A DNA stretch of 51,103 nt, taken from positions 1-51,103 of the IMG/VR virus record IMGVR_UViG_3300007094_000015; one strand, written 5' to 3'. The notes under the pieces are model-generated. The model had not been told where the DNA came from, did not search any database, and saw only the letters and a list, made by a program, of their open reading frames with translations. The DNA comes from a virus. Lineage: Duplodnaviria; Caudoviricetes. A program made the translations under genes and the position numbers. Below are positions 1,668-51,103 of this stretch, in pieces (positions within the stretch are counted from its first letter, which is position 1; each line of letters begins with the position of its first letter).

Positions 1668-2226
1668 GTTCGTACTCCTTCCTCCAGAATCGTTCCAGCC
1701 AGCGAAATGCCATTGTCTCAGCCATGCGCGCCGTATCAGCGAAGATCCATTGGACTCGCGGAAACCGCTGCTGGTACGAGATGACACTTCGCACAAATAT
1801 CTTGCCGTTCAGCTCCACTGGCTTCACGCCATGCGATGGCGCTTGGGTCATGAGCGTGCCTAACGTCGCCTCCACGATCACCACGCCGCACTCCATCTCA
1901 TTTAGGCGGCCCAGCTCCTGCTCAAACCGCTCTCTGCGGCCCGGCAGATGGCGGTCGGCGTCCCGGCCCGTAGCCCAGCCAAGGATGGTGCCCCACGCGT
2001 CGGATTTAGCCTTGCGCTCGATGCCGACGCGGCCAACAAATCCCTCAATGCTGTAGTCGCCGTTGCTCTCCGGGTGCCTGCCAAGGCTCTGCCGCTTGGT
2101 CGGCACCACCAACTCGCGGTAGCCTCGATTTGCGTCTGTTCGCAGCCCCTGAAATGTCCACGCGTTCTGCTCCGCCGTGTCCACCAGCACGGTGAACGGC
2201 GCGACAGCCAGGTCAGACTTGGCCAT
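1651..2226 (-). CDS. ERCC4/XPF-type nuclease (putative junction resolvase)
   Basis: Motifs VLVDTAEQ, GDYSI and VGIERK match the ERCC4 signature (vDxREq...GDY...ERK). Confidence 0.85.
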   Translation of the reverse strand: MAKSDLAVAPFTVLVDTAEQNAWTFQGLRTDANRGYRELVVPTKRQSLGRHPESNGDYSIEGFVGRVGIERKAKSDAWGTILGWATGRDADRHLPGRRERFEQELGRLNEMECGVVIVEATLGTLMTQAPSHGVKPVELNGKIFVRSVISYQQRFPRVQWIFADTARMAETMAFRWLERFWRKEYERAQQK

Positions 2227-8605: not shown

Positions 8606-8758
8606 GACACTCCCTCCAGAATAGACACCTGCCCATGCGCAGGAGTTGCCGTCGAAACTAACGGCGGGTAAAACACAGATCCCGGCCAGAGATACGCGTC
8701 TCTTGCGCGTGTCTTGCCCGGCAGGTGGTTCGCGCCGCCTGCCGGGTCCGGGCTTTTC

Positions 8759-30400: not shown

Positions 30401-33400
30401 AATTCGGCTATCTGCTCGTCAGTCAAAGGCTCATAGCCGCGCCTAGCAGCTTTGTTTGAGATCGACCGAAGCCTGCGAAGACGCTCCGCATTATCCATTG
30501 CAGCAACCGGCTTCTTGCCCTTTTTAGGCACAGATTCAGCCTGAGGCTTGTTCGCGTCTTGCGCAGTTACCTTGCGAATCAGGTCTAGCGTGCCCTCGGT
30601 TGAGAAGTTCCTCGAACTAATTTCACCGGCTGTGTATCTTCCATACAGCGAGAAGTCTTTCTTCATTCTCTTTTTTATGTCAAGGAGCCACCCGTCACCG
30701 CCAACTGCGTTCTTAATGCCGATAATCAGCCGATGCACTGCCACGTCGTACACGCCGCCATAGTCACTTGCATCTTTGTCGCTAAGGAAAGCATTTGGCG
30801 GAAATGGTTTCTTTGCGTCATTGCGAGGCGTGCCGTCGCCTTCAAAATCAAACACAAGCGAAGCTACCTGCGCAATTCGTTCAGCCTCTTGGTAGTCGCC
30901 CGTACCTAAATGAATTCCGCGATTCAGGCCTTCCCCTAGTACGACAACATCATACATCGCCGTGCCAGGCTCCCTGATCACGGCCAAGTTGCTTCCGAAT
31001 ACAACTGCTTCAGCGAGGTCGAAAGTGTCAGCAGATGACTCGTATGACTCAATCCCCAAGGTGTTAAGATCAATCTCTTGCACCACTCCGGCTGGTGCGT
31101 ACTTCTCAACGATCTCCTTGATCTGGCTGCGCATCTCGTTCACTTGTTCGTAGGCAGCTTTGGCCCTGGCCATACCATCCGACAGCTTCTTGCCCTTCGA
31201 CTTGTCGGGCTTGGGCTTGGGCTTATCTTGCTTCTTGCCCTTGGACTTGGGCGGGTCCGGCTTCTTCGGTTCATCAGGCGGCGGCGTCGGAGTTGGCGTC
31301 GCAGGTGCCGGGGGCGGAGTCGGAGTCGGCGGAGTTCCTGGCGGAGGCGTGTCCGGGTCTGCTGGTGGATCGGTGGGTGGGTCGGTGGGCGGATCCTCTT
31401 CCCAGAACTTCTTGCCACCGCGATCAACCCACTCCTGCATGAACTCGTTGTTTACGAATTCGACGTGGCGTCCCGTACCTCCCTCGCGTTGCACGTCCTC
31501 CACGGCTTTTGCCAGTCCGTTGCCGAACGCAGTGGACATGGACGCGCCCTGATTCATGGCGTCCACGGCATCCTTGGCGTGCTTGGCTGCAATGTCCCGC
31601 AGGGCATTGATCGTGTCGGTGTCGAGCGGCTGGTCGGCGTCCGTCGGAGGCGTATCGGGCGTGGCAGCTACCGGCGCAGGGGCGACGGGAGGCGTCGGCG
31701 TTGCTGCGGCGGGCGGGGCGGCAGGCGGGACAGGAGGAGCAGGCGGAGGAGTGACTGGCGTCTGCTGCGGCGGGATGGGCTGCGCACCAACGCCCTTGCC
31801 ACTGGTCATGGCGACAGCCACCATCTCGCGCAAGTCGTCGTCTGTCAGTGACTTCAGCGCTTTAGTGCCCTTTTTAGGCAGCTTGATGCCAAACATGTCT
31901 GCCAGAGACAGTAGTCCATCACGGTCCTCGCCTTCGATCTGCTTGTATACCGCTTGGGCAGCATCAGACAGCGGCGGACGCTGTGGCGTGTCCTCCTCGA
32001 CTGGCGTTTGCGGCTGCACCGGCGCGGCGGGAGGCGGCACGGGCGTCTGCTGCACTGGAGGCTGTGGCTGAACCGGCGCTGGCTGCACTGGAGCCTGCGG
32101 CGGCTGCACTGGCGGTTGCTGAACCGGAGCCGGGGCGACTGGCCTGCTTCTGGCCGCCTCAGCCTCTCGCCTTGCCATCTCCTGCTTGATGATGTCCTGC
32201 TTGTTCTTTCCACCTTGTTTCCGTAGCCGATTACGCTTGTCACGGCGCAAACGCGTGTTACCGCCAAACAAGCGACGCAACTCAGAAGCGCTCATCCCCT
32301 GCATCTGCTCGTAGGTTAAAACATCGCGCTTCAGGCCCTTGTTAGGCTTGCCATAAGCTGGGTCAAGGTCTTGAATGCCGGGCTGCGCTGGAAGCCCGTA
32401 GCTTTCATCCAGCGGAGCGGTTTTGGGCTGGGCCGCTTGTGGCGAAACACCCGATTTAATCGCCCGGTCGATTGACTTGGCCTCTGCGACCCACTCGCTC
32501 ATGTTGGAACGAGCTTTTTTACCCCAGTAGTTGGCCAGCGTCGCCTGTGACGTGCCCAGGATATTGGCGAACTGCTTGCGCGACACATTGTGCGGCAACT
32601 TCGCCAATGCACTTGCGACTTCGGGGTACTCGTTCAGAAATGCTGTCGACGACCGATAGCCGGGCGTGCCGGATCGTTCGGCTTCCAGCGAACCCACCAA
32701 CGACTGCTCGCGCTTCGGACGGCGGCCAGGAATCGCGGTGCCTGTCTGGGACTCGTAAGCAGTAGGCGGCTCTTGTCTTGTGATGTTTGCGGATTTGGGC
32801 GACTGCTCCAGCTTGCTTGGCTGCGGCAATGGATTGTCTGCCGCGTACTGATCTGCCTCGGCTTGCAGCCTTGCCTCTTCCTCGCGATACGCGTTTTTGG
32901 CGCTGCGAGTCTTGGCCTGCTCAATCCGCTGCGGAACCTGCGAGGCCATGCTGATCGCACCGCCGCCAGCTCGCATTCCGGCCCACGCCAGGAACTCCAC
33001 GCCCAGCTGCTCAGCGGCTCGCTGACGAGCTGCGGCACGCGCTTCTGGCGTGTCGGCCGTGAATGACTCAATGGCCGCACCCGTCACGCCGTAGCCACCT
33101 TCACCCAAGGCTGCGCCCATGCCGATTTCAGCAACGCGCTCCTCAATAAGTTCGCCCAGCAGCCCGTGGACGCCCATCTTGCGCATGACTTCGTTCGCGC
33201 GCGTCGGGTTTAGTCCTGTGCTTCGCTTGACCGTCAGCGCGAGCCACTCACCAAGCCCCTTTTCGATGCCAGTCGGAGGAATGAAATTGCCGATCTGCTC
33301 GCTGGCGACGTTAATAAACTGCTCAACCGCAGCTTTAGCAGCGGCCGGTACTGCTGTCTCGTTGGGATCAGCAGCCAGGCGGTCGGCCGTGCCTTTGGCC

Positions 33401-39477: not shown

Positions 39478-42209
39478 CAGCGAATCCTCTTGCGGCCAGC
39501 GGATCGGATGACAGCAGTGACTCGCTCCAGAAACCAGCGACGCTTGGAGCCCGCCTTGTTCTTGACTTTCACGACAGCCGAGACGCCACGGACACGCGGA
39601 CGCGTGTTGTAGTTCAGCCCCGGGTTATCCCAAGTGCCCGCGTCTTGTGTCGTCGCATAGAACGACTCTTCGGCCGAATTGCCAGCGGTGACTTCCCAAG
39701 TGATGGGACCAGACTCGCGGCCGATGCTGCCCTGCAACTCGGACAGCATGCCTTCCTGGAATCCCTGCCGATCCAGATGGAACGGGCCGAAGCAGCAGTA
39801 CGCTTCGATCTCCAGGTTTCCGTCGTCCACCTGATAGTCGCGGTGAAACTGGCGAATCTTGCCATCGCGGCCGCCAAGAAGGACGGCGGGGCAGTCGTCC
39901 CATACAGTACGCTCATGCAGGCAGAACGGTTCATGATTTGTGGAAACTTTGACACGCCAGAATGCCTTGGCCTGCCAGTCGAACCACCAGTGCGAACCCT
40001 CCGAACCGTCGAGCCGCGTCACAAAGACGTGGACGCCACGGGCCAGCGTATCGTATTCCAGCGACACCGACTCACGCTCCGGGTTGAGGCAGAGCAGCTC
40101 GTCGGGCAGTCGCTCCCGAGAAAGAGACGTGGGGAACCCGGCACAGCCTGCGGAGATCACATAGAGTCCGTCGGCCGAGAGAAAGATCACCATGTCGTCG
40201 GGCGTGCGCGTCCATGCGTTTTGCGACACGATGCCAATCTTCCTCGATAGGGCGTCGAGAGTACCGCCATATCCCGGGTCACCACGCATGATCCAGAGTG
40301 AATTGTACGAACCAAACAGCAAGCACTCATCGCCGTGCGGGATCATCGCCGTGATGGGGTCGGCGAGCTGGCCCGCTGTGCTATTCTCGGCAAATACCGC
40401 AGCCCCGGAGTCTTCTTGCCCGTAGTCCCAGTTGAACGGGTCGCCTTGCTTCGACATGTACCACACATGAGGCAGTAGGTCGGAGCCCGCATAGACAATT
40501 CGATCACGATAGAGGGCGACGAGGCGACAACCAGCAGGGACTGTGCCGACGTTGGCGTAGTGCGGTGTGACTGTGTTGAGCTTTGGGTCATAAACTTTCG
40601 GCTGGCGAGCGATCCGGTAGACCACGTTCAGGATGTCCTGCCCGTAGCCCAGCGTCGTGGTGCCGTTGTCGTGGCTGGCCAGGTTTAGGGCCGGGTTAAA
40701 CGTGATGACGGTGCCAGTGATGCTGGAGATGGCGTAGGTTCCGGCGATAGCCGTGCCACCAGCGCCGACCTGCGTGATGGCAACCGATGCGGACGGCGAC
40801 GAGCCGGTGAGTGTGGTCGTGTCGACGACAACAGCGGGCTGTTCTTTGCCAGCTAGCGTGCCGCGAAACATGATCTTGTACGGTCCCTGAGTGCCGCCGG
40901 TCCCCAGGTTGACGACAGTGCAGTTGCCGGTGCCGACCGTGTTCAAGGCCAGCAGGGCGTTGACCAGCGTCCCCTCGTTGGTCGGGTAAGAAAGCGCAGC
41001 GGTCTGGGCTCCCTTGAACGACAGCTTGAACGTGCCGCCAGTCGTGTTGGCAAACGCCAGCGTCTGGACGGTGTTGCGAGAGTAGTTGGAGTCCAGGATC
41101 TCCAGAACGTAGCCAGTGTCGAGGCCGGTCAGCGTCTGGCTTGTTTCCAGCTTGGTGAACCCGGTCTGGGCGTCGATAGACCCCGTCTCACCCGATACCA
41201 CCACGCCGTAGTCGGCAATGAACAGCTTCTGCTCGCGGTCGACGGCGGACAACTGGACGCTGGGAGACAGCGGCGTGTTGGTCGTGACCTGCTTGAGCGT
41301 GTTGACCGTGTCCTCCACCCAGAGGTTGCCGTTGGCCACGGCTACCAGCAGGTCGCGGCGTGGGTTAGCAGGAACCGTCCGCACCGTGGGGTCGTTCTCG
41401 AAATCATGCGACAGCTGCGTTACTTGGATGGTCGAGCCGGGCGACGTGACCCCAAACGCAAAGGCCCGGCCGAACAGCGTCGTGACGGTTGTGCTCAGCA
41501 GCTGCTGGCCACGCCAGTAGACCTTCACGCCGGACGTGCCGGGCGTGACCTCCACCATGAACGTGCCTGCCGCGTTGCTGGTGTCGGCGACCGGGCTGGA
41601 GGCCAGGGTCGAAACGATGGACCCGTTATTCCGCTGCGTCAGGGTGGCCGAGTAGCCCGCCGAAGTGAACGATAGCGTCACCGTGTTGACGTTTGTCTTG
41701 GTGTCGGAACTAGGTGAGGCCAGCCCGAAATGGATCTTGGCCGTGCCAGTCATCACCTTGCCCAGCTTCGGGCGGATGTGCATGGCGATCTCATACGGTC
41801 CGTTGTTGCTGACAACAGTGGGGATCGGCATCGCCCGCTCCCAGTCCGGGCCGTAGAGATAGGCGTCCGACTGGGAGTTCAGATAGCCGTAGCTGTACGA
41901 CGGGGATCCCGTGTACCCGGCTGGAATCAGGAAGTCCCGGAGTTGCGTGCCGAACGCTGGCTGCACCGCGCGGGTCCAGCCAGTCTTAAGCACCGAAACC
42001 TTGGTGAGCAGGCGGATCGGCCCGGAGAGCTGGGTACGCAACGAGAGCCCGAGGCCCGGGCGGCTTCCACCAGACTGTCGCAGTTCGCTGGTGGTTTGCG
42101 TTCGGACATTGACCGCGTCGGGCGTTGTATAGGGCGGCTGCCGCTGGTAGCCCGTGGCGCGGTCAATCCCGGCAACCGGCCAGATAAGATCCAGCCAGCT
42201 CTTCTGCAT
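39477..42209 (-). CDS. Tail tubular protein B / nozzle (beta-propeller) with inserted domains
   Basis: PDAVNVR...RPG N-terminus; YRDRIVY..., MSKQGDPFNWD, DPITAM, IGIVSQNA, FLSADGLY propeller blades. Start at ATG 42209 overlapping the upstream stop. Confidence 0.75.
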   Translation of the reverse strand: MQKSWLDLIWPVAGIDRATGYQRQPPYTTPDAVNVRTQTTSELRQSGGSRPGLGLSLRTQLSGPIRLLTKVSVLKTGWTRAVQPAFGTQLRDFLIPAGYTGSPSYSYGYLNSQSDAYLYGPDWERAMPIPTVVSNNGPYEIAMHIRPKLGKVMTGTAKIHFGLASPSSDTKTNVNTVTLSFTSAGYSATLTQRNNGSIVSTLASSPVADTSNAAGTFMVEVTPGTSGVKVYWRGQQLLSTTVTTLFGRAFAFGVTSPGSTIQVTQLSHDFENDPTVRTVPANPRRDLLVAVANGNLWVEDTVNTLKQVTTNTPLSPSVQLSAVDREQKLFIADYGVVVSGETGSIDAQTGFTKLETSQTLTGLDTGYVLEILDSNYSRNTVQTLAFANTTGGTFKLSFKGAQTAALSYPTNEGTLVNALLALNTVGTGNCTVVNLGTGGTQGPYKIMFRGTLAGKEQPAVVVDTTTLTGSSPSASVAITQVGAGGTAIAGTYAISSITGTVITFNPALNLASHDNGTTTLGYGQDILNVVYRIARQPKVYDPKLNTVTPHYANVGTVPAGCRLVALYRDRIVYAGSDLLPHVWYMSKQGDPFNWDYGQEDSGAAVFAENSTAGQLADPITAMIPHGDECLLFGSYNSLWIMRGDPGYGGTLDALSRKIGIVSQNAWTRTPDDMVIFLSADGLYVISAGCAGFPTSLSRERLPDELLCLNPERESVSLEYDTLARGVHVFVTRLDGSEGSHWWFDWQAKAFWRVKVSTNHEPFCLHERTVWDDCPAVLLGGRDGKIRQFHRDYQVDDGNLEIEAYCCFGPFHLDRQGFQEGMLSELQGSIGRESGPITWEVTAGNSAEESFYATTQDAGTWDNPGLNYNTRPRVRGVSAVVKVKNKAGSKRRWFLERVTAVIRSAGRKRIR

Positions 42210-42574
42210 TAGACGTAGGTCACCGTCCCAGCTACGACTCGCCACTGCAGGACGCCGTCCAGCATGAACGACTCCAGCACGGCGAAGTTGCCTTTGTCGA
42301 TGCGAATCGAGTTGGCCGTCCCGTCCATCGTCGTACCAGTGGGGGCCAGGAAAATAGCCCAGCCAGAAGCAGGGAGCGAGTCCATGCTGAGGCGAATCCG
42401 CTGGTCAGCGCTCACCGGCGGCGGCAGCTTGCGACTCGCGGGGCTGGTGGCCGAACGAATCAGGAACGTCGCACCCCAGATCTCGCGTTCATCAAGCAAT
42501 TCGCCTTCGACACTCGACACAATCGACGGATCAGATTCCGCCAGGTGGTAGCGGACACTGTGAATCGAAGTCAT
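42209..42574 (-). CDS. First gene of the late operon, putative structural protein
   Basis: SD GGAGG; 121 aa, beta-rich. Confidence 0.55.
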   Translation of the reverse strand: MTSIHSVRYHLAESDPSIVSSVEGELLDEREIWGATFLIRSATSPASRKLPPPVSADQRIRLSMDSLPASGWAIFLAPTGTTMDGTANSIRIDKGNFAVLESFMLDGVLQWRVVAGTVTYV

Positions 42575-42601
42575 TCGTTGCCTCCAAAAAAGGATGCCTG
42601 C

Positions 42602-42636
42602 ATTGTGGCGACGCGGGGGCCACTTTCGTCAAGCCT
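42602..42636 (-). promoter_or_regulatory. Putative late promoter (AGGCTTGACGAAA element) of the virion operon
   Basis: TTGACG-N19-CACAAT; the 13-mer is identical to that at 49592-49604 and equidistant from the first start codon. Confidence 0.6.
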
Positions 42637-42706
42637 AACTAGACAAATCGCGCGGGCCTTCGCCATCCTTGGGGCTGTAGTCACTGTTCCTGTATACGGA
42701 GGTAGT

Positions 42707-43297
42707 ATGGACGAACGCGTCTCCAAGAAGTCGACAGACCACAGACACTTCGGCCGCTGGCTGAGCGACGAGGAGTTGGAAGCCCTTAAACGCACCGAAC
42801 TCATCCTGCCCATCATGGCCTGCTGGCTGCCCATCCTCGCCCAGATGGCCAAGGACAAGGGCATGCCACGCACCAAGTTCATCCGCAGCCTAATGGAGAA
42901 AGCCGCCAGGCAGATGGGCTACCCGCTGCCCAAGGACCGCATCGGCTGGAAGCCCAAGCGAAAGAAGACCAAGGCCGAGAAGGCACGCCATCTCAAGAAA
43001 CTTCAGATGCGACGGTACAGGGCTCGGAAAAGAGAGGAGCTGGCACGGGATCCCGAGTGGTTCTGGTCGCCCGAAGGCTACGTCGGGACCGCCGACCTCG
43101 ACTCGCTCGGCACCACCGCAGGCATGGTCGACCATCTCGGCGTCTGGCATCCAGAGTCGCACCGCTACACGCCAGCCAGAATAGCCGCCGCGTGCCAGAA
43201 GGCGATGGACGAAGGCGAGCTGGATGGCGAACGATGGCAGCTTTTCGTGCGGAGATATGGGGGAGGGGGAGGAGAAGTGGGTGCAGATTCCGAATAG
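42707..43297 (+). CDS. Putative DNA-binding regulator (ribbon-helix-helix-like + basic helix)
   Basis: SD GGAGG before ATG 42707; LAQMAKDKGMPRTKFIRSLMEKA resembles RHH helices; Lys/Arg-rich segment; divergent from the late promoter. Confidence 0.5.
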   Translation: MDERVSKKSTDHRHFGRWLSDEELEALKRTELILPIMACWLPILAQMAKDKGMPRTKFIRSLMEKAARQMGYPLPKDRIGWKPKRKKTKAEKARHLKKLQMRRYRARKREELARDPEWFWSPEGYVGTADLDSLGTTAGMVDHLGVWHPESHRYTPARIAAACQKAMDEGELDGERWQLFVRRYGGGGGEVGADSE

Positions 43298-43299
43298 CT

Positions 43300-43720
43300 A
43301 CCACGCAGGGATCTCGCGGCGCGGGCGCGGGGGTTCGGTAAAGTCTTGGTCGGCCTTGGGTCCCTCCGGGTCCCCCCCTGCCCTGCCCTGCCACTATCCA
43401 CCTGGTCCGCACCGTGCCGATGGCCGCCGTGCTGGCCGTGATGGGCCACGCTGGCCCCGCTGCATGGCCACTATGCACGGGCAGGACGGCGGATCGGCGT
43501 CCGGCCGAAGCCAAACCCGAAGCCACGGCCACGGCATCGGCGACGCGGTGACGCGGTGACGCGGTCGGCGACGCGGGCGACGTGAGCCAGGTGCACCGAC
43601 GGCGTCGGCCTGCCCGCGACGCGGTGAAGGTCGGCCGCGGCCGACGCGTTGCATGCCCGCGCGGGCGACGCCGCCCGCCCCCCACGCCCCCCGATGAGCT
43701 GTCAGCATGACGCGGCGAAT
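43300..43720. repeat. Very GC-rich non-coding region with GACGCGG, GCCACG and CCCTG short repeats (candidate packaging/terminus region)
   Basis: gacgcggt gacgcggt gacgcggt cggc gacgcgg at ~43541-43577, more copies at ~43618 and ~43709; ccctg x3 at ~43376-43390; no credible ORF. Confidence 0.55.
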
Positions 43721-43736
43721 TTCTGGCCCTGCCCGA

Positions 43737-43765
43737 TTGACAAATCCGATATTACTCGATACCGT
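43737..43765 (+). promoter_or_regulatory. Strong sigma70-type early promoter
   Basis: TTGACA-N17-TACCGT about 70 nt upstream of the first early gene. Confidence 0.7.
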
Positions 43766-43834
43766 GGCCGGTCCACGGCCAACGCGTGTTGGTTGTGGTG
43801 TTGATTGAGTGTTGATGATTCTGGAGGCATGGAC

Positions 43835-44383
43835 ATGAAATTCGAGTCGATCGGCGAAACTACAACCGTGACAACGGCCAACACCGCGCACTTGGCGCTT
43901 CAGCTGGCCAAACTTCCGCCCGGACGATATACGATTAAGTGGGCCATGGAAGGGTATGAAAGCACGACCGCTTTCGGCGTCACGGTCCTGCCAGTTGATG
44001 AGGCCGGTGACATGGCCGCGTTGCTGGCCGACGTGACGGAGCGTATCGACCTTGCAACCGGTCGTTTGCTGTCTCGCCTTGTGGCTGACTACCCGCCATT
44101 TACGCGAGACTTGACGCAACAGCTGACCGACGCGGTGACATGGGGCCAGTGGTTGCATTCTCGCCATTTGGCCGCGGGCGCTTATTGGTGCCTGGGGCGC
44201 GACATTGACGCCATTCTGGATTGCGTCTCGGAGGCACAGAGCTGGCAGCCGGAACAATGGCTTGTCGCGTTGGCCGCGATGCGAGCTCCACGGTGCACGT
44301 GTTGCGGTGACGTGCCGCGTTGGGTGAATGAAGCGGCGTATATGTCGCGCGTCTGCCTTGCCATTCTCCCGATCGGCGATTAG
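43835..44383 (+). CDS. Early hypothetical protein
   Basis: ATG 43835 is 7 nt after GATTCTGGAGG. Confidence 0.65.
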   Translation: MKFESIGETTTVTTANTAHLALQLAKLPPGRYTIKWAMEGYESTTAFGVTVLPVDEAGDMAALLADVTERIDLATGRLLSRLVADYPPFTRDLTQQLTDAVTWGQWLHSRHLAAGAYWCLGRDIDAILDCVSEAQSWQPEQWLVALAAMRAPRCTCCGDVPRWVNEAAYMSRVCLAILPIGD

Positions 44384-44492
44384 TGGCCGCCTGCCTGCCC
44401 GAACCTGATAGCTGGCCAGCGGTGACACGCTGGCCAGCTCGATGGCCCGGGCAGTCGACGCGGTCGACGCGGGGAAGTCTAGATTCTGGAGG
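44384..44492 (+). ncRNA. Intergenic structured element, copy 1 (long hairpin + CTAGATTCTGGAGG box)
   Basis: CTGCCCG/CGGGCAG stem, AA/CC loop, CC/GG, UGAU/CGAU loop, 12-bp stem AGCTGGCCAGCG/CGCTGGCCAGCT. Confidence 0.7.
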
Positions 44493-44500
44493 TCGAGACA

Positions 44501-45253
44501 ATGCGAGAGAATGCAAACGGCGTCGTGCTATGGGAAGGTCGGTCGCTTATCGACGGGCAGGCGGTCGTGGTCGTGGCCACGTTCCATTCTGAGAACCGGA
44601 AAACGGGCGACATGATCCAGACTTTCATCTTGCTGGCCGATACCCCGCCGGTCGACGCGGCTGCCACCGGGGCCGACGTGGCTATTTGCGGCGCGTGCCC
44701 GTTGCGTGGGATTATGATGGACGGGCGGAACCGCGACCGCGCTTGTTACGTGAATCTCGGGCAGTCGCCCGCCAGCGTCTGGGAATGCTGGGATCGGGGC
44801 GGATATCCGGCATACAATCCGGCCCGGCACCGTCGGCTATTCCTGGGGCGTTCGTTGCGGATCGGCGCGTATGGCGACGCGACGGCTACACCGTATGGTG
44901 CCTGGGAGTCGGTGTTACGCGCCGTGCGGAAGCGCCGGACGGGATATACGCACCAGTGGCGGACCTGCGACCAGCGATGGCGGGCTAAGCTGATGGCCAG
45001 CGTGGAAACGGTGCTGGGGAAAATCGAGGCCAATACCATGGGCTGGAGGACGTTCCGGACGAAGTTAGCCGGGGACCAGCGTCTGCCTGGAGAAAAGGGA
45101 TGCCCGGCCTCGATTGAGGAAGGCCAGCGGAAAACGTGCGACGGGTGCTTATGGTGTAGCGGCGCCGAATACGGGCGCGGTGATATCGTCATCGACGCCC
45201 ACGGCACCCGGGGGAAGGTGGCTGCATTCCGCCGGATGTTGTACCGCGACTAG
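44501..45253 (+). CDS. Conserved phage early protein with Cys clusters (Fe-S / radical-SAM-like, inferred)
   Basis: NRKTG, ICGACP...CY, LRIGAYGD, GYTHQW, MASVE, CPA...CDGCLWC. Confidence 0.6.
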   Translation: MRENANGVVLWEGRSLIDGQAVVVVATFHSENRKTGDMIQTFILLADTPPVDAAATGADVAICGACPLRGIMMDGRNRDRACYVNLGQSPASVWECWDRGGYPAYNPARHRRLFLGRSLRIGAYGDATATPYGAWESVLRAVRKRRTGYTHQWRTCDQRWRAKLMASVETVLGKIEANTMGWRTFRTKLAGDQRLPGEKGCPASIEEGQRKTCDGCLWCSGAEYGRGDIVIDAHGTRGKVAAFRRMLYRD

Positions 45254-45363
45254 TGGCCGCCTGCCTGCCCGAACCGGACGCCCTGCCTGGAGCAATCTCG
45301 GCGGGGCCGACGGCCCGGGCAGTCGACGCGGTCGACGCGGGAAGTAAAGTCTAGATTCTGGAG
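45254..45363 (+). ncRNA. Intergenic structured element, copy 2
   Basis: Flanks identical to copy 1 (25 nt on the 5' side including the TAG stop, ~30 nt on the 3' side) around a different inner stem GCCCTGCC/GGCGGGGC. Confidence 0.7.
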
Positions 45364-45372
45364 AGCGGGACA

Positions 45373-46056
45373 ATGCAAATTGAGATTGCGTCGGGGAAAG
45401 CGCTTGCGAACATGGTGGACACGGGCCATCGACGGTATGCCATGGGCAACGTGGCCGTGACGCCCACGGATGATAAGCGCGTCGCGCTGGCGGCCACAAA
45501 CGGCATGGTGTTGGGAGTCGCGCTCGCGGCGACCGACGGCGACGCGCCAGCGGAAGGGAAGTGGGCGGCCGCGTTCGACGCCGACAACCTGCCCACGGGC
45601 CGGTCCACGTTGTTGGTTAGCCCGCTTGGCGTGGCGGCCATCGGCCCGAAGCGCGGGGGATCGCAGCCACGGACCGACCTCACGGCGGAAATGGGGCGCA
45701 TGCCCGACCTGCCCTGTGTGGTGCCGGACACGGTCGACGGTTACCGCGTGCTGGTGCTCGACGCTACGCTGTTGGCCGCGCTGGCGGCGATGATCAACAC
45801 GCGGGAGAATACCGGCGTGCGCATCTTGTGGAAGGACGCCGATGAGGCCGTCATGGTGCTGCCCCAGTCCGGTGAAGGTGGGTTTGGCGTGCTCATGCCG
45901 CGCACCAGCGACCAGCGGTCGGACGCGGCCGACCGATTAAGTTGGCGTGAAATGGTGGCCGCCTGGAAGGCCGGATACGATCGCGACATGGTGCACGGTG
46001 CCACCACGGCGGGCGACGGCGTGCCGTTCGCGTCCGAAGATCGCGCCACGATCTAA
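45373..46056 (+). CDS. DNA sliding-clamp (DnaN)-like protein, truncated/two-domain
   Basis: RRYAMGNV, LAATNG..L, GRMPD...VVP, LDATLL..L and GVLMP parallel the R..L.GV, ATDG.RL, G.FP....V.P, N...L and LMP motifs of beta clamps. Confidence 0.65.
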   Translation: MQIEIASGKALANMVDTGHRRYAMGNVAVTPTDDKRVALAATNGMVLGVALAATDGDAPAEGKWAAAFDADNLPTGRSTLLVSPLGVAAIGPKRGGSQPRTDLTAEMGRMPDLPCVVPDTVDGYRVLVLDATLLAALAAMINTRENTGVRILWKDADEAVMVLPQSGEGGFGVLMPRTSDQRSDAADRLSWREMVAAWKAGYDRDMVHGATTAGDGVPFASEDRATI

Positions 46057-46172
46057 TTGGCGACGTGTAGCGTGAACCTGAGGCCGTCGGGACTGGAGGA
46101 CCGGCGGCCGACGGCCCGCGCTGCTGGCGTCGTGCTGGCGGATGGCGGAATTCTGGTCCTAGATTCTGGAGG
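46057..46172 (+). ncRNA. Intergenic structured element, copy 3 (diverged, covarying)
   Basis: GTAGCGTG/CGCGCTGC stem, AA/CC, CC/GG, tandem GA, GGCCGTCGG/CCGGCGGCC stem with GACTGGAGGA loop; ends in CTAGATTCTGGAGG. Confidence 0.65.
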
Positions 46173-46180
46173 GTTCGATC

Positions 46181-46486
46181 GTGGTAGCGTACGCAAAATT
46201 GGCACCTGGAGTGCTGGCGGTGTACAGAAGAGCGCTGGCGAAGCGCTATTGGCAGCTGGCGGTACAGTTCAGCGACGCGCCGGATATGGTGACGGGAGCA
46301 GCGCTGGCGGACGCGGCGTTGCCGTTGTTGGCGGAGCTGGTCGCGGCGGGCAGGATGACGCCCGAAGAGCACGCGGACGTGCTGGAGTCGGTGTTGCGCG
46401 CGGTCGCGCACGCGGCCGATGCGGAGTGGGAGTTTGACGACCCGATCTGGCACGAAGTCGTGCTGGCCGGGTGGTTCGCGGTTTAG
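46181..46486 (+). CDS. Early hypothetical protein (helical, acidic)
   Basis: GTG 8 nt after the CTAGATTCTGGAGG box. Confidence 0.65.
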   Translation: MVAYAKLAPGVLAVYRRALAKRYWQLAVQFSDAPDMVTGAALADAALPLLAELVAAGRMTPEEHADVLESVLRAVAHAADAEWEFDDPIWHEVVLAGWFAV

Positions 46487-46517
46487 TTTTTCTGGTACTA
46501 GATTCTGGAGGTGGACA

Positions 46518-46796
46518 ATGGCAGCGAAAGTAAGGTGGCGCGTGTATCGCGCGCCTGAGGGTAGTGGGCTGAGCTACTGCGGCGAATTCGAGGAACTCAC
46601 CGACGCGCACGCGTGCGCGCAGGGTAATCCGTTTGGCCAGCACGAATCGCTATGGGATACGCTCCGTGCGGCTGGGGACGCGTTCCGGTTTCATGCCCCT
46701 CGACCCGATGGCGTCGAGGCCGACGAAGTGGAGGCCTGGTACGGCGAGCACTGCGTGGTCCGCGTGACGTACCGGGAGGACAAGGATGCCCAGTGA
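46518..46796 (+). CDS. Early hypothetical protein
   Basis: ATG 46518 (MAAKVRW...) is 6 nt after the CTAGATTCTGGAGG box. Confidence 0.7.
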   Translation: MAAKVRWRVYRAPEGSGLSYCGEFEELTDAHACAQGNPFGQHESLWDTLRAAGDAFRFHAPRPDGVEADEVEAWYGEHCVVRVTYREDKDAQ

Positions 46797-46989
46797 CGCG
46801 CAAGTGAACGCCTGGATTATTCGCGTCCTCGCGGGGCGCGACGATCCGCATAGGCTGGTGGCTTATCTGTGCTGGCATGAAAAAGCTAGCAAGGAGCAAG
46901 TGTGGCAGCGGTTCGTGCGCGCCGCGCCGAAGACAACCAAGGAGCAATTCGATCGCGTGTGGAAGGACGCGCGGTTGCCGGTGCTGTAG
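46786..46989 (+). CDS. Early hypothetical protein
   Basis: SD GGAGG, overlaps the upstream stop, followed by a terminator. Confidence 0.65.
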   Translation: MPSDAQVNAWIIRVLAGRDDPHRLVAYLCWHEKASKEQVWQRFVRAAPKTTKEQFDRVWKDARLPVL

Positions 46990-46992
46990 ACG

Positions 46993-47034
46993 GGCTCGGG
47001 GCGGGGGTGTATGCTCCCGCCCCGGCCTTTTTTT
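46993..47034 (+). terminator. Rho-independent terminator ending the early operon
   Basis: CGGGGCGGGGGT-GTAT-GCTCCCGCCCCG stem followed by T7. Confidence 0.85.
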
Positions 47035-47057
47035 GTGACTTATTTCAAGGCTAGAAC

Positions 47058-47267
47058 ATGATCCCAACGCTGATAAGACTGACGCCCGAGTGTTACAAGG
47101 TTCTCGTCGCGCTCGCGGACGACCTGGGGCAGCCCGCCGCGCGTGTGGTGGAGGACTGCCTGTGGAACTCGCCACGCTTCCGGGCGTTCGCGGAAAAGCA
47201 CAAAGTGGTCAGACCGCAGCGCAAGCGGCCTGGCCGCCCGCCTAGTGGCGGATCCGAACCGTTGTAG
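47058..47267 (+). CDS. Small ribbon-helix-helix-like DNA-binding protein with AT-hook-like tail
   Basis: TLIRLTPECYKVLVALADDLGQPAARVVEDCL (beta-alpha-alpha), then KRPGRPP. Confidence 0.6.
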   Translation: MIPTLIRLTPECYKVLVALADDLGQPAARVVEDCLWNSPRFRAFAEKHKVVRPQRKRPGRPPSGGSEPL

Positions 47268-47544
47268 ACGCAGGACGCAACAGCCGGAACGGTCGCGCGA
47301 GCGACGCCCGGCAGCGTCCAGCAGCGCACGCGGTGCTGGCCACGCTCGTCGTGGCGACAGCAGCAGCACCGCAGGTAGGCTCCGCCGCAGCCCCGCAGCT
47401 GGGCTCGGCGGTAGCGCACGCGGCTTCGAGGCAGGTCGCGCACGCGGGATTGGCGACACGCGAAAAGAGGTCGACTCTGACCGACGTGGAAGCGCTCGCG
47501 GAACTGGCCAACGCTGCAAAGGCCAGGGTTAGGATCAGACGCAT
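47242..47544 (-). CDS. Secreted Cys-rich small protein
   Basis: Signal peptide MRLILTLAFAALASSASA; CATC, AEPSCG/AEPTCG repeat, CAAGRC, Arg-rich tail. Confidence 0.65.
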   Translation of the reverse strand: MRLILTLAFAALASSASASTSVRVDLFSRVANPACATCLEAACATAEPSCGAAAEPTCGAAAVATTSVASTACAAGRCRASLARPFRLLRPASTTVRIRH

Positions 47545-47553
47545 AGGATCACC

Positions 47554-48447
47554 TCATTTCTGTATCAGGTTTGCTTGGAGGGCGTTTTCTCGGCGCTCCT
47601 CCGACGGACGCGGGGCGGTGCAATCGGACCGACCGATTGCGGTGGTGTACTTGGCAGCCACCATCTGGTCGAACGCGGAGGGCTTGATTAAGGCCCATCC
47701 ATCGCGGCCCCAGGATCGGGACCAGCTGTTCTTAAGTAGAAGGCCGTAGCCTTCTTTCCATGCTTTGACCTGCAGGTATCCACAGATCAGGACGGCGTGG
47801 CCACCACGGCGAGCGGGCTTGTAGGTTTTGATCTCCCAGCCATCAGACAGCGACACGTTCCAGTCGAGGCCGATCTGCACAGCACCTGAGAATGATCCAA
47901 TGAACGCCAGCGCTTCGTCGGCGGAATAGACGCCCACTGACGACCTGCACTGGTACAGAGGGCCAGCCAGGACTCTGTCGCGGTCCTCGCGGTAAGCTGC
48001 GAGCTGCTCGCGGTAGGATGAGCGATAGCCGAAGATGGATTCGTCAGGCAGGCCGCGCTGGGCTGCCCAAGTGCCGCCGTTGAGGGTGGAGCCGTTATCT
48101 GAGCCTAGCAATCCGTCCTTCTCTTGGCTGGAGAGATAGGCAAACGAACGAGACAGCTGCACCTCCTCCCCGGTTCCGATCAGGTGCGCAAACTCGACAG
48201 CGTCAGCCAGCGAGTTGCCTTGGCAAGATCCAATGCGCCCTTGGTCATGGATGTCAAACCAGGAACGCGGATCCACCTCGCGGGGCGGCTCCCAGTCGTA
48301 GTTGCGGTAGGCGCGAACCCACAACTCAGCGCCAGCGCGGAGGCCGGGGGCCATCTCGTCGCGCGGTTCCAGCTCAATCCGATAGCCGGTAAAGAACGGC
48401 GCAAGATCTGGGCTCAAATGGGCTAGTTCGGGCTCGTATCCAGTCAC
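47554..48447 (-). CDS. Papain-family (C1) cysteine peptidase
   Basis: DQGRIGSCQG (oxyanion Gln, catalytic Cys), GGHAV (His), KNSWSRSWGRDG (Asn). GTG 48447 overlaps the upstream stop. Confidence 0.9.
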   Translation of the reverse strand: MTGYEPELAHLSPDLAPFFTGYRIELEPRDEMAPGLRAGAELWVRAYRNYDWEPPREVDPRSWFDIHDQGRIGSCQGNSLADAVEFAHLIGTGEEVQLSRSFAYLSSQEKDGLLGSDNGSTLNGGTWAAQRGLPDESIFGYRSSYREQLAAYREDRDRVLAGPLYQCRSSVGVYSADEALAFIGSFSGAVQIGLDWNVSLSDGWEIKTYKPARRGGHAVLICGYLQVKAWKEGYGLLLKNSWSRSWGRDGWALIKPSAFDQMVAAKYTTAIGRSDCTAPRPSEERRENALQANLIQK

Positions 48448-49148
48448 TCGGCTGCTTTCCCCAGTGCTAGAGAAACCTCCAGATAGATCGACTTGCGCGC
48501 GACGAGGCCGGTGCCATACTTGGCGTTGGCGGCAGCGACCGCAGCGGACACGGGGGGCAGCCACTCGGATCGCCAGCGAGGCGACAGGGAGTCGATCACC
48601 GCGTCTAGCTTGGCCTTAACGTCGGCTGGCAGGCGGCCAGTGTGCAGGTCGTTCGCGGCTTCACTGAATGCCGTTGAGAGTTGGCGACACTCGTCCGCGA
48701 GGGCCAATTTCCGGGCGTTTTCGTACGCTGGAAGCCCCACGCCGTACGAGTTTTGCACGCTGGGGGTAGGGTCTGGAGGCGGAATTGGGGGTCCGGGAGG
48801 CGGTTCTGGAGGCCTCGGAGGCACGATTGGACCGGGTTTTGATGGGTCCACGATCTCCACGAACAGCTGCTGTTGGCTGGCCGGACCGAACACCAAAATC
48901 GCGTAGCGACCCGGCGGGCCAACGAAGACTAGGCCAGACGCCACCGGCTCGATTTCCACCGGGGTGAACCCCTCGCCGAAGATGAAGGCCCGCTCTTCAG
49001 GGGCCAGGCGCACGCGGACCAGACGGTCGCGCTCGACGCGTTGAGGGGCGTCGGCGGCAGAGCAAAAAGCGGCCGGGATGGTGGCCAACGCTAGATTCTG
49101 GAGGAACAGAACGGAGAACAGCCATCCCGGCCGCGTGATAGTATACAT
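48444..49148 (-). CDS. Exported/membrane-anchored protein with Pro-rich linker and helical C-domain
   Basis: Hydrophobic N-terminus, GPPGRY beta domain, PPRPPEPPPGPPIPPPDP linker. Confidence 0.7.
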   Translation of the reverse strand: MYTITRPGWLFSVLFLQNLALATIPAAFCSAADAPQRVERDRLVRVRLAPEERAFIFGEGFTPVEIEPVASGLVFVGPPGRYAILVFGPASQQQLFVEIVDPSKPGPIVPPRPPEPPPGPPIPPPDPTPSVQNSYGVGLPAYENARKLALADECRQLSTAFSEAANDLHTGRLPADVKAKLDAVIDSLSPRWRSEWLPPVSAAVAAANAKYGTGLVARKSIYLEVSLALGKAAE

Positions 49149-49543
49149 CAGGCGGCACCCTTGAGAAGTGCGTCGAGAATTTTCTTGAGGTCGTCGGACT
49201 GGATGGCGTCCCAGAGCAGCTTGATCGCGAGGCGAATGACGATCGCGCTCGCGGGTCCGCCAGCAGGGATGGGCTGGTCGGCCTCCTCCAGGATCTCGCA
49301 GCAGACGCTGGTGACGAGATACGCATCAGACTCGTCGACATACGGGTCGTCGACGTTCCCGAAGACTGGATGCAGCTCTCCGCCTGCGCGACTGACCAGC
49401 CACGCAGATACGGTCAGCAGGCAGGCCAGGAACTCCGAGTCAAAAGTTCGACTCGCAAACTTCGCTGCCAAAAGCTGGAAGCAGCCGATAGGTGGCTCGC
49501 TCGGGACGTGGGCTGCGATCAGGCGGCGTGTCTCTTCGTTCAT
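49148..49543 (-). CDS. Hypothetical protein, first gene of the peptidase cassette (possible holin-like)
   Basis: SD AGGAG before ATG 49543; two moderately hydrophobic/amphipathic helices. Confidence 0.55.
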   Translation of the reverse strand: MNEETRRLIAAHVPSEPPIGCFQLLAAKFASRTFDSEFLACLLTVSAWLVSRAGGELHPVFGNVDDPYVDESDAYLVTSVCCEILEEADQPIPAGGPASAIVIRLAIKLLWDAIQSDDLKKILDALLKGAA

Positions 49544-49895
49544 AGCGGTCAAGCTCCTTCTGTATATCAGAGCTTGATGGGGGGTAGTTGATTTCGTCAA
49601 GCCTTCTATTTGCGGCGACGCACCACGCTCCATCCATGCACTGGTTGTCGAAGAAGGGATCGTGGTACGGAATCGCGGGCAGCTGCTGGGGCTGGCGTTG
49701 TGGCTGGTCGATCCCCACCCAGGCCATCGTGCCGGGAGTCGGCTCGATCAGGATCTGATGCGCCGAAACCAGGACTGGAATTGGCTTGTGACAGTGGGTG
49801 CAATGCGGTATCTGGGAATGATCCAGCCAGCGAAAACAGCTTCCGCACGCAACGCAAGGGGCAACACCGCAACCAGCCGCAACCGTGTAAGTCAT
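49440..49895 (-). CDS. Possible Zn-finger protein
   Basis: CVACGS..RW......HCTHCH; overlaps the origin repeats and the downstream gene, so uncertain. Confidence 0.3.
   Translation of the reverse strand: MTYTVAAGCGVAPCVACGSCFRWLDHSQIPHCTHCHKPIPVLVSAHQILIEPTPGTMAWVGIDQPQRQPQQLPAIPYHDPFFDNQCMDGAWCVAANRRLDEINYPPSSSDIQKELDRYERRDTPPDRSPRPERATYRLLPAFGSEVCESNF
49571..49604 (-). promoter_or_regulatory. Putative late promoter (AGGCTTGACGAAA element) of the peptidase cassette
   Basis: 13-bp identity with 42624-42636; weak -10 candidate (CAAGCT at N18). Confidence 0.55.
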
Positions 49896-50108
49896 TGTTT
49901 ATAAACACCTTATGAGCGCGGTTGCTGGTTGCGGCTGGAGGGCGAACACACACACACAAACGCACCTACCCTAATACCTAAATACAAAACACACCTCTCT
50001 TCTCTCTCTCTCTAAATATCAGCAACCCCGCAACTCTCCTCCTAATGCTCTGATATATAAGGACTTGCGCGGTTGCGGTTTGGTTGCGGTTGCCGCAACC
50101 GCAGCAAC
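49848..50108. repeat. Putative replication origin with GCAAC(C)/GGTTGC iterons
   Basis: More than 10 GCAAC(C) copies in two convergent arrays, each around an AT-rich core, separated by CA and CT dinucleotide runs; just downstream of the primase-helicase. Confidence 0.7.
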
Positions 50109-50111
50109 GGG

Positions 50112-50288
50112 CTATTCCTTGGCTGCGAATAGCTTGCCGTCGATTTCGACCAGCACATAGCCCTGCTCAACGGCTTCCGACGGACCAAGACAGCCACAGT
50201 CGGCGTAATGGTCGGCGTGCTCTGGGCACCAAGGCTCCTCGCAGCACTCGCACAGCGGCAGGTCGTCCGCGAACACGATTGGGATCAA
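50112..50288 (-). CDS. 58-aa Cys/His-rich (Zn-binding) microprotein
   Basis: Hand translation from TTG 50288 (SD GGAG): MIPIVFADDLPLCECCEEPWCPEHADHYADCGCLGPSEAVEQGYVLVEIDGKLFAAKE. Confidence 0.65.
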   Translation of the reverse strand: MIPIVFADDLPLCECCEEPWCPEHADHYADCGCLGPSEAVEQGYVLVEIDGKLFAAKE

Positions 50289-50290
50289 AT

Positions 50291-51103
50291 TCAGAACTCC
50301 ATCTCAGCGGGCGCGTCCTCGTCACCCAAGAATTGCTCCGTAACCCACGCGTGGGGAAGCCAGCAGCACTTTTTCGTGGCCCGGGCCACCTTGGCGTCGC
50401 GACAGAACGCGCCGGGCACGCGCAACAGAATCTGCCGGATAGCAGCACCACTCTCCTGCAGCTTCGACTGCAGGCCACTATGGTGTACTACGAGCCACTC
50501 AACTCCGTCTACGCGTTTCAACGCCAATCCCAGCTGCGACTCCAGCTGGTCGGCATACTGTTGGCTGCCCAATCGCCCGACCTCGTCCAGAATCTGGCTC
50601 GCCGTCATTTGGGCACCGCCGCCACAATGCACTGGCAGGCCTAGAATCTGCTGCACCAGTTCCAGGTGCTGCTCCTGACCTGTCTCCTCACGGCTGCTTT
50701 GCTCCATCACATCGCACAGCAGCTGCAGCCGCACGCGAGCGTCTTCGTGGCTGCCTCCCGAGCTAAGCGCCATCAAGGCCACGGGGGCGGCGAGCCCCTC
50801 GACCAGCCGGTCGGAGCACTCGGTTTCGATCTCGCGGCGGATCTTGGCCGCCACGTCTGCGGCTTGAATAGCGTACGCTGCCGCAACCGCCATGAGCCCG
50901 CGCCGCAGCTGCGTGCGGACCTCTTGGCTGGGCGACTTCCAGGCGCGCCAGCGTTCCTCGTCTGGCCGGACCAGCTCAAACGGGATGAAGCGATTGGCGT
51001 CCATCTGGCTGTCCAGCCCAACGTGAACCCCAACCAGCCACACGCACGCGCGCAGGCCGAACTCGACCGAACGGTGCGACGTGCTGCCCATCGTGATCGT
51101 GTC
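50291..51103 (-). CDS. C-terminal part of the primase-helicase (5' truncated by the right end)
   Basis: Frame open to the window end; MGSTSH...F.LR...L...D.NRF resembles the sensor/Arg-finger end of phage AAA+ helicase domains; complements the gene broken at position 1. Confidence 0.65.
   Translation of the reverse strand, partial: DTITMGSTSHRSVEFGLRACVWLVGVHVGLDSQMDANRFIPFELVRPDEERWRAWKSPSQEVRTQLRRGLMAVAAAYAIQAADVAAKIRREIETECSDRLVEGLAAPVALMALSSGGSHEDARVRLQLLCDVMEQSSREETGQEQHLELVQQILGLPVHCGGGAQMTASQILDEVGRLGSQQYADQLESQLGLALKRVDGVEWLVVHHSGLQSKLQESGAAIRQILLRVPGAFCRDAKVARATKKCCWLPHAWVTEQFLGDEDAPAEMEF

Follow-up and report, generated by a model that had tools for sequence, protein, structure and literature searches.

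The window analysed here is the whole 51,103-bp IMG/VR virus record IMGVR_UViG_3300007094_000015 (60.6% G+C; CheckV completeness 100), which represents a freshwater temperate phage. In this genome, a 14-nt box that contains the Shine-Dalgarno (SD) sequence is stamped, in clear excess over chance, on the ribosome-binding sites of five consecutive small genes of the + strand; it is under selection in the one relative that could be compared, and its exact complement is found at the tip of a highly stable predicted hairpin within the first 30 codons of a predicted lipoprotein gene that runs on the minus strand. We tentatively propose, from sequence comparison and folding, that the box is a shared translational operator and that an antisense hairpin RNA is its most likely partner. 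The fuller scheme, in which a small regulon of stamped boxes would be switched by one hairpin RNA that is hidden in lipoprotein codons and doubles as an attenuator, is possible but more doubtful.

A box stamped on the start sites of five consecutive genes

The box reads CTAGATTCTGGAG(G), or CTAGATTCTGGAGG as a 14-mer, and is made up of nine specific letters followed by the SD sequence GGAGG. Four such copies are found 6-9 nt 5′ of start codons (at 44479, 45351, 46159, and 46498), and an 11-nt version precedes the first gene. On the + strand, box 1 (GATTCTGGAGG, 43817-43827) lies 7 nt before ATG 43835 of gene 1, box 2 (CTAGATTCTGGAGG, 44479-44492) 8 nt before ATG 44501 of gene 2, box 3 (CTAGATTCTGGAG(A), 45351-45363) 9 nt before ATG 45373 of gene 3, box 4 (CTAGATTCTGGAGG, 46159-46172) 8 nt before GTG 46181 of gene 4, and box 5 (CTAGATTCTGGAGG, 46498-46511) 6 nt before ATG 46518 of gene 5. 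The original prediction, which was made from the letters of the window, had described a box 6-9 nt before the starts of five consecutive genes, which it assumed to be early, and every coordinate that it gave was correct, as was the extra TTCTGGT that it saw upstream of the last two boxes (at 46151 and 46490). Boxes 4 and 5 share a 22-nt version that includes this TTCTGGT (repeat family D12), and a start-codon block, GGACA(A)TG or AGACAATG, is common to four of the five boxed genes.

The enrichment, which the original prediction proposed to check, is real. The motif GATTCTGGAG, with at most one mismatch, has 17 matches compared with 2.69 ± 1.71 in shuffled sequences (none of 100 shuffles reaches 17), and the 8-mer TTCTGGAG has 14 copies compared with 1.34 expected. 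The 13-mer CTAGATTCTGGAG, with at most one mismatch, is found five times in the forward direction, never in reverse, and never in either of two controls that were read backwards. The box is the most repeated 12-mer of the 51-kb genome. Further, CTAG is depleted genome-wide (54 seen compared with ~181 expected from composition), and the CTAG in every box has thus been retained against this trend. Among 2.9 million viral contigs, the exact 14-mer occurs in 94 stretches, with one match each in the 85 that were listed.

We tabulated the starts of all 50 open reading frames (ORFs) in a list that was guided by G+C content at third codon positions (GC3) and not curated. The box is present at five of these 50 starts, all of them genes of the operon, and a 10-11-nt part of it is present at two more, both on the minus strand. 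One partial box, TCTATTCTGGAGGG (8612..8627), contains ATTCTGGAGG and lies 7 nt before ATG 8605 of an excisionase-family gene; the other, GATTCTGGAGG (1681..1691), also matches ATTCTGGAGG and lies 13 nt before GTG 1667, the likely start of the primase gene, with a second AAGGAG between it and this GTG. ATTCTGGAGG is seen once more at 15394-15403(-), within ORF 14687-15553 and away from any start. None of the virion-module ORFs (9100-42574), including that of the major capsid protein, has a box at its start, and other starts have assorted GGAG or AGGA cores, or none. We conclude that the box is distinct from the general ribosome-binding site of the phage.

A sixth copy, read as its complement in a predicted hairpin

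A sixth copy of the box, an exact 14-mer that was absent from the list in the original prediction, lies on the + strand at 49091-49104, where no + strand gene follows it. By arithmetic from composition, ~3e-4 chance copies of such a 14-mer are expected in the genome on both strands. The genes of 47554-51091 lie on the minus strand, as indicated by the GC3-based ORFs and by protein homologues, and the complement of the box (the anti-box) is therefore transcribed in the sense direction here, where it encodes F-L-Q-N-L-A of the signal peptide. On the minus-strand RNA, this exact complement is enclosed in a hairpin (49069..49134) whose G+C-rich arms (49069-49081 and 49122-49134) pair perfectly over 13 bp, the inner helices being weaker, and the apical loop, CUCCA, falls inside the anti-box. 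The predicted fold has an energy of -38.6 kcal/mol (z -5.13), and none of 200 shuffled sequences folds as well. Directly 3′ of the hairpin is a terminator-like U-run, UUUUUGCUCUG (49058..49068, minus strand); a terminator scan limited to loops of 3-8 nt flags inner sub-hairpins followed by CTTTTTGCTC.

Upstream of the hairpin, on the same strand, is a σ70-like promoter match, TTCTCA-16-TATACT (49140..49167), which is a consensus match only (9 of 12 letters) and the sole promoter-like match on either strand of 42000-51103 (one found compared with 1.4 expected in shuffled sequences). A start ~7 nt 3′ of this match would make an RNA that begins at the foot of the hairpin and is ~70 nt long. Covariance models of Rfam 15 gave no match in 43000-51103 at E values up to 1. 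The anti-box offers contiguous complementarity of 14, 14, 14, 13, and 11 nt to the five boxes. Because the G+C-rich flanks pair everywhere and cofolding cannot model pairing between a loop and its target, we used duplex plus opening energies to describe the interaction, and these range from -8.8 to -12.0 kcal/mol over the five sites.

The gene around the hairpin (48444-49148, minus strand) encodes a predicted secreted protein or lipoprotein of 234 amino acids; its ATG and the stop codon of the preceding ORF overlap as ATGA, and scans against PHROG, Pfam, and NCBIfam returned no family match. Its homologues comprise close ones (91-95% identity), one at 66-67%, and one distant protein, all with an N-terminal signal peptide, and no sequence of the first alignment departs from Cys-29. 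Apart from the sequence of the window itself, five close relatives are full-length (P0001, P0004, and P0006-P0008); their signal peptide is a second allele, with ~9 changes, which allowed possible conservation of the hairpin to be assessed at the protein level. The anti-box residues FLQNLA are the same in all five, and the 66-67% homologue reads ALQSLA. Placed on the fold, W9R and I24A strike both partners of one base pair; with CGG and GCN as the codons, this pair would change from U-A to C-G. The base opposite the second base of codon 24 is at a synonymous position. With P25L, a G·U pair would form on the minus-strand RNA, compared with a C·A mismatch on the + strand RNA, and, of the other changes, four fall in unpaired positions and two weaken short inner helices. 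This pattern is consistent with a hairpin under selection on the minus-strand RNA.

How the box and the hairpin could work together

We envisage the box as a start-associated translational operator that would place each cistron of 43835-46989 under one post-transcriptional control, with the excisionase-family gene possibly, and in part, under the same control. The original prediction had also suggested a common translational operator, and this part of it now has a candidate partner, namely the box complement at the hairpin apex (49069-49134, minus-strand RNA). The partner would be an RNA from the opposite strand, running from 49134 to ~49063 as a long hairpin that ends in the U-run. It could be the product of a promoter of its own or of transcription that stops early within the lipoprotein gene. 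The loop of this RNA would pair with the box and cover the ribosome-binding site, so that initiation on all five cistrons would be blocked. The reverse direction is also conceivable, in which mRNAs bearing the box would open the terminator hairpin and so allow the lipoprotein and peptidase genes to be read. In the fuller scheme, the apex would pair with five to seven ribosome-binding sites, one of them at the excisionase-family gene, and would keep a lytic or early programme silent. The discrete RNA species, its pairing with the boxes, and the direction of the effect are all matters that we infer.

If the pairing is real, it would represent a compact means by which a phage co-regulates separately translated cistrons and a case of a regulatory RNA nested within the codons of a signal peptide. 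A practical rule for annotators would be to seek a single antisense copy of any start box that is found stamped on a genome. If the pairing is not real, the box would still mark genes under common translational control and mosaic junctions in this group of phages.

Conservation of the box in relatives of the phage

The only relative with DNA at the operon is a metagenome contig, here L208, which has ~85% nucleotide identity to the window, spans 43.8-47.7 kb, and begins inside box 1, so that the comparison covers four complete intergenic regions. Its boxes read TCTAGATTCTGGAGG, TCTAGATTCTGGAGA, TCTAGATCCTGGAGG, and CCTAGATTCTGGAGG; boxes 2, 3, and 5 are identical to those of the window, and box 4 is CTAGATCCTGGAGG, without TTCTGGT. 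In total, 55 of 56 box positions are identical, compared with 270 of 341 other intergenic columns (Fisher p 1.2e-4). Because this difference holds even beside genes with 47-60% protein identity, selection must act on the box beyond its SD core, and we conclude from this alignment that the nine letters 5′ of the SD are under purifying selection. The original prediction that conservation extends well past the SD is thereby supported. Genes 1, 4, and 5 of L208 have 60, 53, and 47% protein identity to those of the window, compared with 88-96% for genes 2, 3, 6, and 7 (92, 92, 88, and 96%). Gene 5 is remodelled in L208 (37 amino acids compared with 92) and is followed by an extra ORF, which is away from any box; the gene order is otherwise the same. 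Contigs from four aquatic or freshwater metagenome runs provided further relatives, in which the position of box 1 reads TAGATTCTGGAGG at a loose contig end and GGAGG is completed in box 3 of one relative by an additional G. The 22 runs that were listed included none of RNA.

Relative G001 (77% identical in TerL) is without the operon region, and its excisionase-family gene is without a box. Two distant relatives, G004 and G005 (TerL identity 43-49%), have start boxes of their own stamped on runs of small genes. Those of G004, CTCTGAAAGGATCA..ACACAATG, comprise four exact copies and two near-copies of one 14-mer (locus L203, 21.5-23.2 kb, minus strand), and that of G005, GGAGGAGAATCTACCGATG, has two exact copies and three near-copies (locus L205, 17.5-18.2 kb, + strand). 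The core of the G005 box, AGAATCTA, is the reverse complement of TAGATTCT in the window. Among the viral contigs, searches with gene 3, the peptidase, and protein P0002 found no relative, and a search with gene 2 found 34 loci with no more than 47% identity, all of them lacking the box. A search of metagenome contigs with the peptidase returned one contig, L208, which ends short of the hairpin. Among genome contigs, the lipoprotein alignment had no match and gene 2 matched one Methylovulum prophage at 40%. Among GenBank phages, the lipoprotein had no match and the operon had a single match of 102 nt, which is at chance level.

Likeness to the start-associated sequences of Cluster K mycobacteriophages

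By form, the closest known system is the start-associated sequence (SAS) of Cluster K mycobacteriophages. In the parts of the 2011 account that describe it (PMC3203893), the SAS is a 13-nt asymmetric repeat that contains AGGAG, lies 3-7 nt before starts, occurs in one orientation and at non-structural genes only, and is conserved beyond what pairing with rRNA would explain; imperfect inverted repeats precede about half of the sites, and the function was left undetermined there. The relevant section of a 2025 survey (PMC12699233) describes the function as still awaiting experimental verification. The likeness of the window to this system is thus one of form and not of mechanism. The box of the window is likewise asymmetric and SD-containing, with five copies 6-9 nt before ATG or GTG (the SAS criterion is 3-8 nt); it, too, is in one orientation, off the virion module, well above chance, and conserved past the SD, in one relative. 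In the extended SAS (ESAS), imperfect inverted repeats with a spacer of variable length stand just upstream of about half of the sites. In the window, a 27-nt imperfect inverted repeat precedes box 2 and related flanks precede box 3, which may or may not correspond to the ESAS; boxes 1, 4, and 5 have no such repeat, and the arms are unrelated in sequence to the ESAS arms. The differences are that the box does not match the SAS consensus GGGATAGGAGCCC at up to two mismatches, with only the GGAG core in common, that it belongs to an unrelated phage and host world (shared proteins were not searched), and that it has 5-7 copies compared with 11-19. The window would thus represent an SAS-like phenomenon in an unrelated lineage and with a different sequence, with a specific putative partner, a ~70-nt hairpin RNA that carries a perfect 14-nt complement.

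The likeness extends to one odd copy in the other sense and away from gene starts. Four K1 phages have one SAS copy each in the opposite orientation and off gene starts, according to the same account (PMC3203893); in the window, unlike in these phages, the odd copy is exact and lies inside a coding hairpin with a U-run. In phage Anaya, we found that the reversed SAS copy lies within the apical loop (10 nt) of a two-tier hairpin, on the strand that is transcribed, in a 385-nt non-coding gap at the right end of the genome (locus L210, 34840-34905, corresponding to 59839-59904 of the record). The region of this hairpin matches 150 phage records, and from the 60 listed we chose 13 phages across the range of identity, giving 14 with Anaya. 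In this sample, both the outer and the inner stem persist, with changes in both of their strands. The loop is complementary to the SAS in seven phages, a pyrimidine-rich variant in three, and unrelated in three, and one phage is without the inner hairpin. Some records annotate a hypothetical protein over this hairpin. If the antisense reading is true, the same layout in K1 mycobacteriophages would give the SAS a first testable function, at least in that subcluster.

Several observations weigh against pairing between the hairpin RNA and the boxes. In the window, the anti-box is partly paired in the predicted fold, with an opening cost of 7.0 kcal/mol; box 1 offers only 11 complementary letters, and box 4 is substituted in L208. 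The promoter of the putative RNA is a 9/12 consensus match, the small RNA is a prediction from consensus and fold, and, as the hairpin and U-run lie inside a real coding region, they could be a simple attenuator or terminator. Among relatives, the start boxes of G004 and G005 have no reversed copy beyond chance at up to two mismatches, and none of the contig sets searched contained a relative in which boxes and hairpin are both present as DNA. In Cluster K, the loops of Marshawn and SirPhilip have lost the SAS complement, and those of Amohnition, Amgine, and Shandong1 keep part of it. These five phages nevertheless have 15-18 forward SAS copies each, with an unchanged consensus, and no convincing reversed copy was found elsewhere in their genomes. 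Because the SAS persists where the loop has changed, the antisense loop cannot be what maintains the SAS in Cluster K, and we rejected the antisense idea for Cluster K phages as a whole.

Other explanations for the box

The alternative that survives best is that a protein or the ribosome, and not an RNA, reads the box as an operator or enhancer, the candidates being the phage CsrA, another phage or host RNA-binding protein, or ribosomal protein S1 acting on the A/U-rich CUAGAUUCU; we regard this as rather unlikely. Binding would then tune or co-repress the five cistrons, and the copy at 49091 would be a decoy or have an unrelated use. The constant distance to the start codon (6-9 nt), the position of the SD within the box, selection that reaches past the SD, and the stamped start boxes of G004 and G005 without reversed copies all agree with such a reader. 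The retention of the Cluster K SAS without an antisense copy points to a reader other than RNA there, and the authors who described the SAS, in the section that considers its role, left the choice between RNA or protein open (PMC3203893). The case for CsrA in particular starts from the fact that the phage encodes a bona fide homologue (82 bits) and that every box has GGA within its SD; three of the five sites have a second GGA in the GGACA at the start codon. CsrA sites typically place GGA in a short hairpin loop with A/C-rich flanks, and most targets have two such sites. Beyond GGA itself, the box departs from this preference: its flanks are UUCU..GG, no fold puts GGA in a loop, and the second GGA, ~8 nt away, is nearer than the CsrA dimer prefers, leaving no well-spaced second site. 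No CsrA sponge RNA was recognised with Rfam (0 matches). This alternative also leaves unexplained why a sixth copy should be found at a hairpin apex, on the strand where its complement is read.

It is unlikely, in our estimate, that the boxes are simply a legacy of duplication and recombination, in which start regions were copied or carried along with genes, the modules serve as homology for swaps, and no regulator is needed. The original prediction had offered such a homology handle for exchanging genes as cassettes, and the evidence for it is circumstantial. On the one hand, the regions between genes 1 and 2 and between genes 2 and 3 are near-duplicates over ~120 nt, boxes 4 and 5 share the 22-nt version, and the phage has a gene for a RecT-like protein (4880-5692). 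blastn similarity to L208 breaks at the 3′ edges of box 4 (46174) and box 5 (46511), and divergence is mosaic by gene, genes 1, 4, and 5 standing apart from the rest. On the other hand, L208 has the same gene order, and its extra ORF is not at a box. We also considered the joints 44316>45257 and 45343>46490 as cassette deletions and rejected them, as their sides are only 23-25 nt and are explained by repeats. A stretch of 14 bp offers little length for homologous exchange, neutral relics would not remain identical at 55 of 56 positions beside intergenic DNA that is 79% identical, and the hairpin around the sixth copy is left unexplained.

Gene shuffling by way of regulatory cassettes has a documented precedent in the PeSLs of T4-type phages, which are cassettes of a strong σ70-like promoter and a terminator stem-loop that lie between small non-essential genes and act as points of gene shuffling, as set out by Arbiol et al. 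2010 (PMC2839356). The window resembles these in having short conserved regulatory modules repeated between small genes, and it differs in that what is repeated is a ribosome-binding region, within a single operon; the PeSL arrangement, with a promoter in each cassette, is not seen here, the four intergenic regions being without a σ70-like promoter match. By analogy with PeSL cassettes, a recombination legacy may well coexist with a regulatory role.

Three further explanations are less likely. It is improbable that a DNA-binding protein such as a phage repressor recognises the box as an asymmetric site on DNA, scattered through the operon so that transcription stops in the lysogen, in the manner of the stoperators of Cluster A mycobacteriophages. 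The exact and 13-nt copies are all on one DNA strand, the similar half-sites TCTAGA and TCTGGA are joined by an extra TTCTGG upstream in two copies, and the reverse-complemented core 8-mer of the G005 boxes would be immaterial for a site read on both strands. Such a site does not, however, need a constant SD-like spacing to starts, the cognate protein is only hypothetical, the sixth copy is opposite in orientation to transcription, and the GACGCGGT array described below is a better operator candidate here. An RNA processing site, at which an endonuclease would cut CUAG/AUU after intergenic hairpins to give monocistronic mRNAs with short leaders, seems quite improbable; the original prediction had also suggested a processing site, together with a putative mini-hairpin of 4 bp over the start of the SD. 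RNase E has a loose single-strand preference that resembles AGAUU, stable hairpins precede boxes 2 and 3, and the box forms an A/U island in sequence of 63-65% G+C; but a loose preference of 5 nt does not call for 14 invariant letters, and boxes 4 and 5 are without a long upstream hairpin. That the box is an unusually long SD, extended as the complement of the 16S rRNA 3′ end of the host, is very improbable, as GGAGG is indeed a canonical SD but bacterial 16S tails after CCUCC are typically U/A-rich and not complementary to CUAGAUUCU, only 5 (plus 2 partial) of the 50 tabulated starts are boxed, with those of the major capsid and other virion genes not among them, and the exact 14-mer has a single match in each of the 85 stretches listed of the 94 found.

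Other precedents for one factor acting on many phage start regions

A translational operator with an antisense partner has precedents in phages, to which the arrangement proposed here bears a partial likeness. The c4 RNA of P1 and P7 is antisense and works in trans, its target sites lying apart from the gene that encodes it. The sar RNA of P22, as summarised in the relevant part of a review (PMC5415839), is a phage antisense RNA that covers a ribosome-binding site. The putative RNA of the window would resemble sar and c4 as a small hairpin RNA with a terminator that pairs with the start regions of phage regulatory genes and blocks translation. It would differ from sar, which is cis-encoded opposite its target, in acting in trans, with one loop for five to seven start sites, and from both sar and c4 in that it would lie within a protein-coding gene, at its 5′ end. 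The T4 translational repressor RegA and the T4 endoribonuclease RegB each act as one phage factor on the start regions of many early mRNAs, and RegB cuts within GGAG of the SD; their targets are loosely defined, unlike the invariant 14-nt box. No RegA or RegB homologue appeared in the general PHROG, Pfam, and NCBIfam scans of the window ORFs.

Intergenic flanks and the GACGCGG repeats

The near-duplication of the gene 1/2 and gene 2/3 intergenic regions involves repeat families D3-D7. An imperfect 27-nt inverted repeat that could form a hairpin (44395..44454, + strand; 78% complementary) lies just upstream of a GACGCGG block and box 2, and the region upstream of box 3 has flanks in common with that of box 2 (D3, D4, and D7); boxes 1, 4, and 5 are without an upstream inverted repeat. 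The motif GACGCGGT has 13 copies compared with 3.56 expected, and seven of these cluster on the + strand at 43542-45332. They include a near-tandem array of four copies upstream of the operon promoter (43542..43625) and doubled copies in each of the two long intergenic regions (44457-44473 and 45325-45341), around which a 30-nt block is identical in L208. From its sequence, the GACGCGG array looks like a separate DNA operator for a DNA-binding protein. An inverted copy, with one mismatch, of the 16-nt start of the long intergenic repeat (TGGCCGCCTGCCTGCC) lies inside the lipoprotein gene at 48624-48639; at the RNA level its sense is the same as that of the intergenic copy, and it is therefore not a pairing partner.

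Layout of the phage genome

The ORF list together with the family scans (PHROG, Pfam, and NCBIfam) show what is, by its predicted genes, a temperate tailed phage. On the minus strand are genes for RecT-like, helicase, nuclease, and primase proteins (3-6486), a CsrA homologue of 60 amino acids (6573-6755; PF02599, 82 bits, E 3e-23; PHROG 9500), an integrase (7057-8328), the excisionase-family protein (8237-8605; TIGR01764 at 27.2 bits, which is below the cut-off of 28.8), and the virion module (9100-42574), which includes a 3258-amino acid protein. A CsrA homologue is also present in relative G001, with 44% identity to that of the window phage; a full-text literature search turned up no paper on a phage-encoded CsrA. 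The 3258-amino acid protein is a single ORF (24472-34248, minus strand) that has weak family matches only (internal virion protein, E 1.6e-5) and holds five copies of AAGGGCAAGAAG between 28615 and 31242. No tRNA genes were found in the window.

The operon is the sole sizeable block on the + strand and comprises seven small genes (43835-47267) without an assigned function, one of which, gene 2, matches PHROG 2554. The boxed genes are genes 1 (43835-44383), 2 (44501-45253), 3 (45373-46056), 4 (46181-46486), and 5 (46518-46796). Gene 6 (46786-46989) overlaps gene 5 and is without a box, and an intrinsic-terminator-like hairpin (46996..47025; 13 pairs, of which 10 are G-C, followed by the T-run CCTTTTTTTG) marks the end of the boxed operon. 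Gene 7 (47058-47267) is ribbon-helix-helix-like by inspection alone, with no family match. A promoter-like site precedes the operon (43738..43766, + strand) and has a perfect -35 hexamer, TTGACA, a 17-nt spacer, and a poor -10 hexamer, TACCGT; our consensus promoter scan did not flag it, as only three of the six letters of the second hexamer match. As the original prediction also noted, AATTTCTGG, at 43718, stands just before the -35 hexamer, 12 nt upstream of TTGACA at 43738. In the leader between this promoter and box 1, a terminator-like hairpin is followed by a U-rich stretch (43773-43798, + strand) and may be an attenuator.

The remaining minus-strand block (47554-51091) contains, beside the predicted lipoprotein gene, the adjoining gene for a papain-family peptidase (47554-48564; Peptidase_C1, E 5.4e-12), a family that is unusual in phages. 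In the same block, an intergenic stretch at 49900-50110 has (AC)n and (CT)n runs between repeated GGTTGCGG-type motifs, together with an inverted repeat, and may be an origin or a divergent control region.

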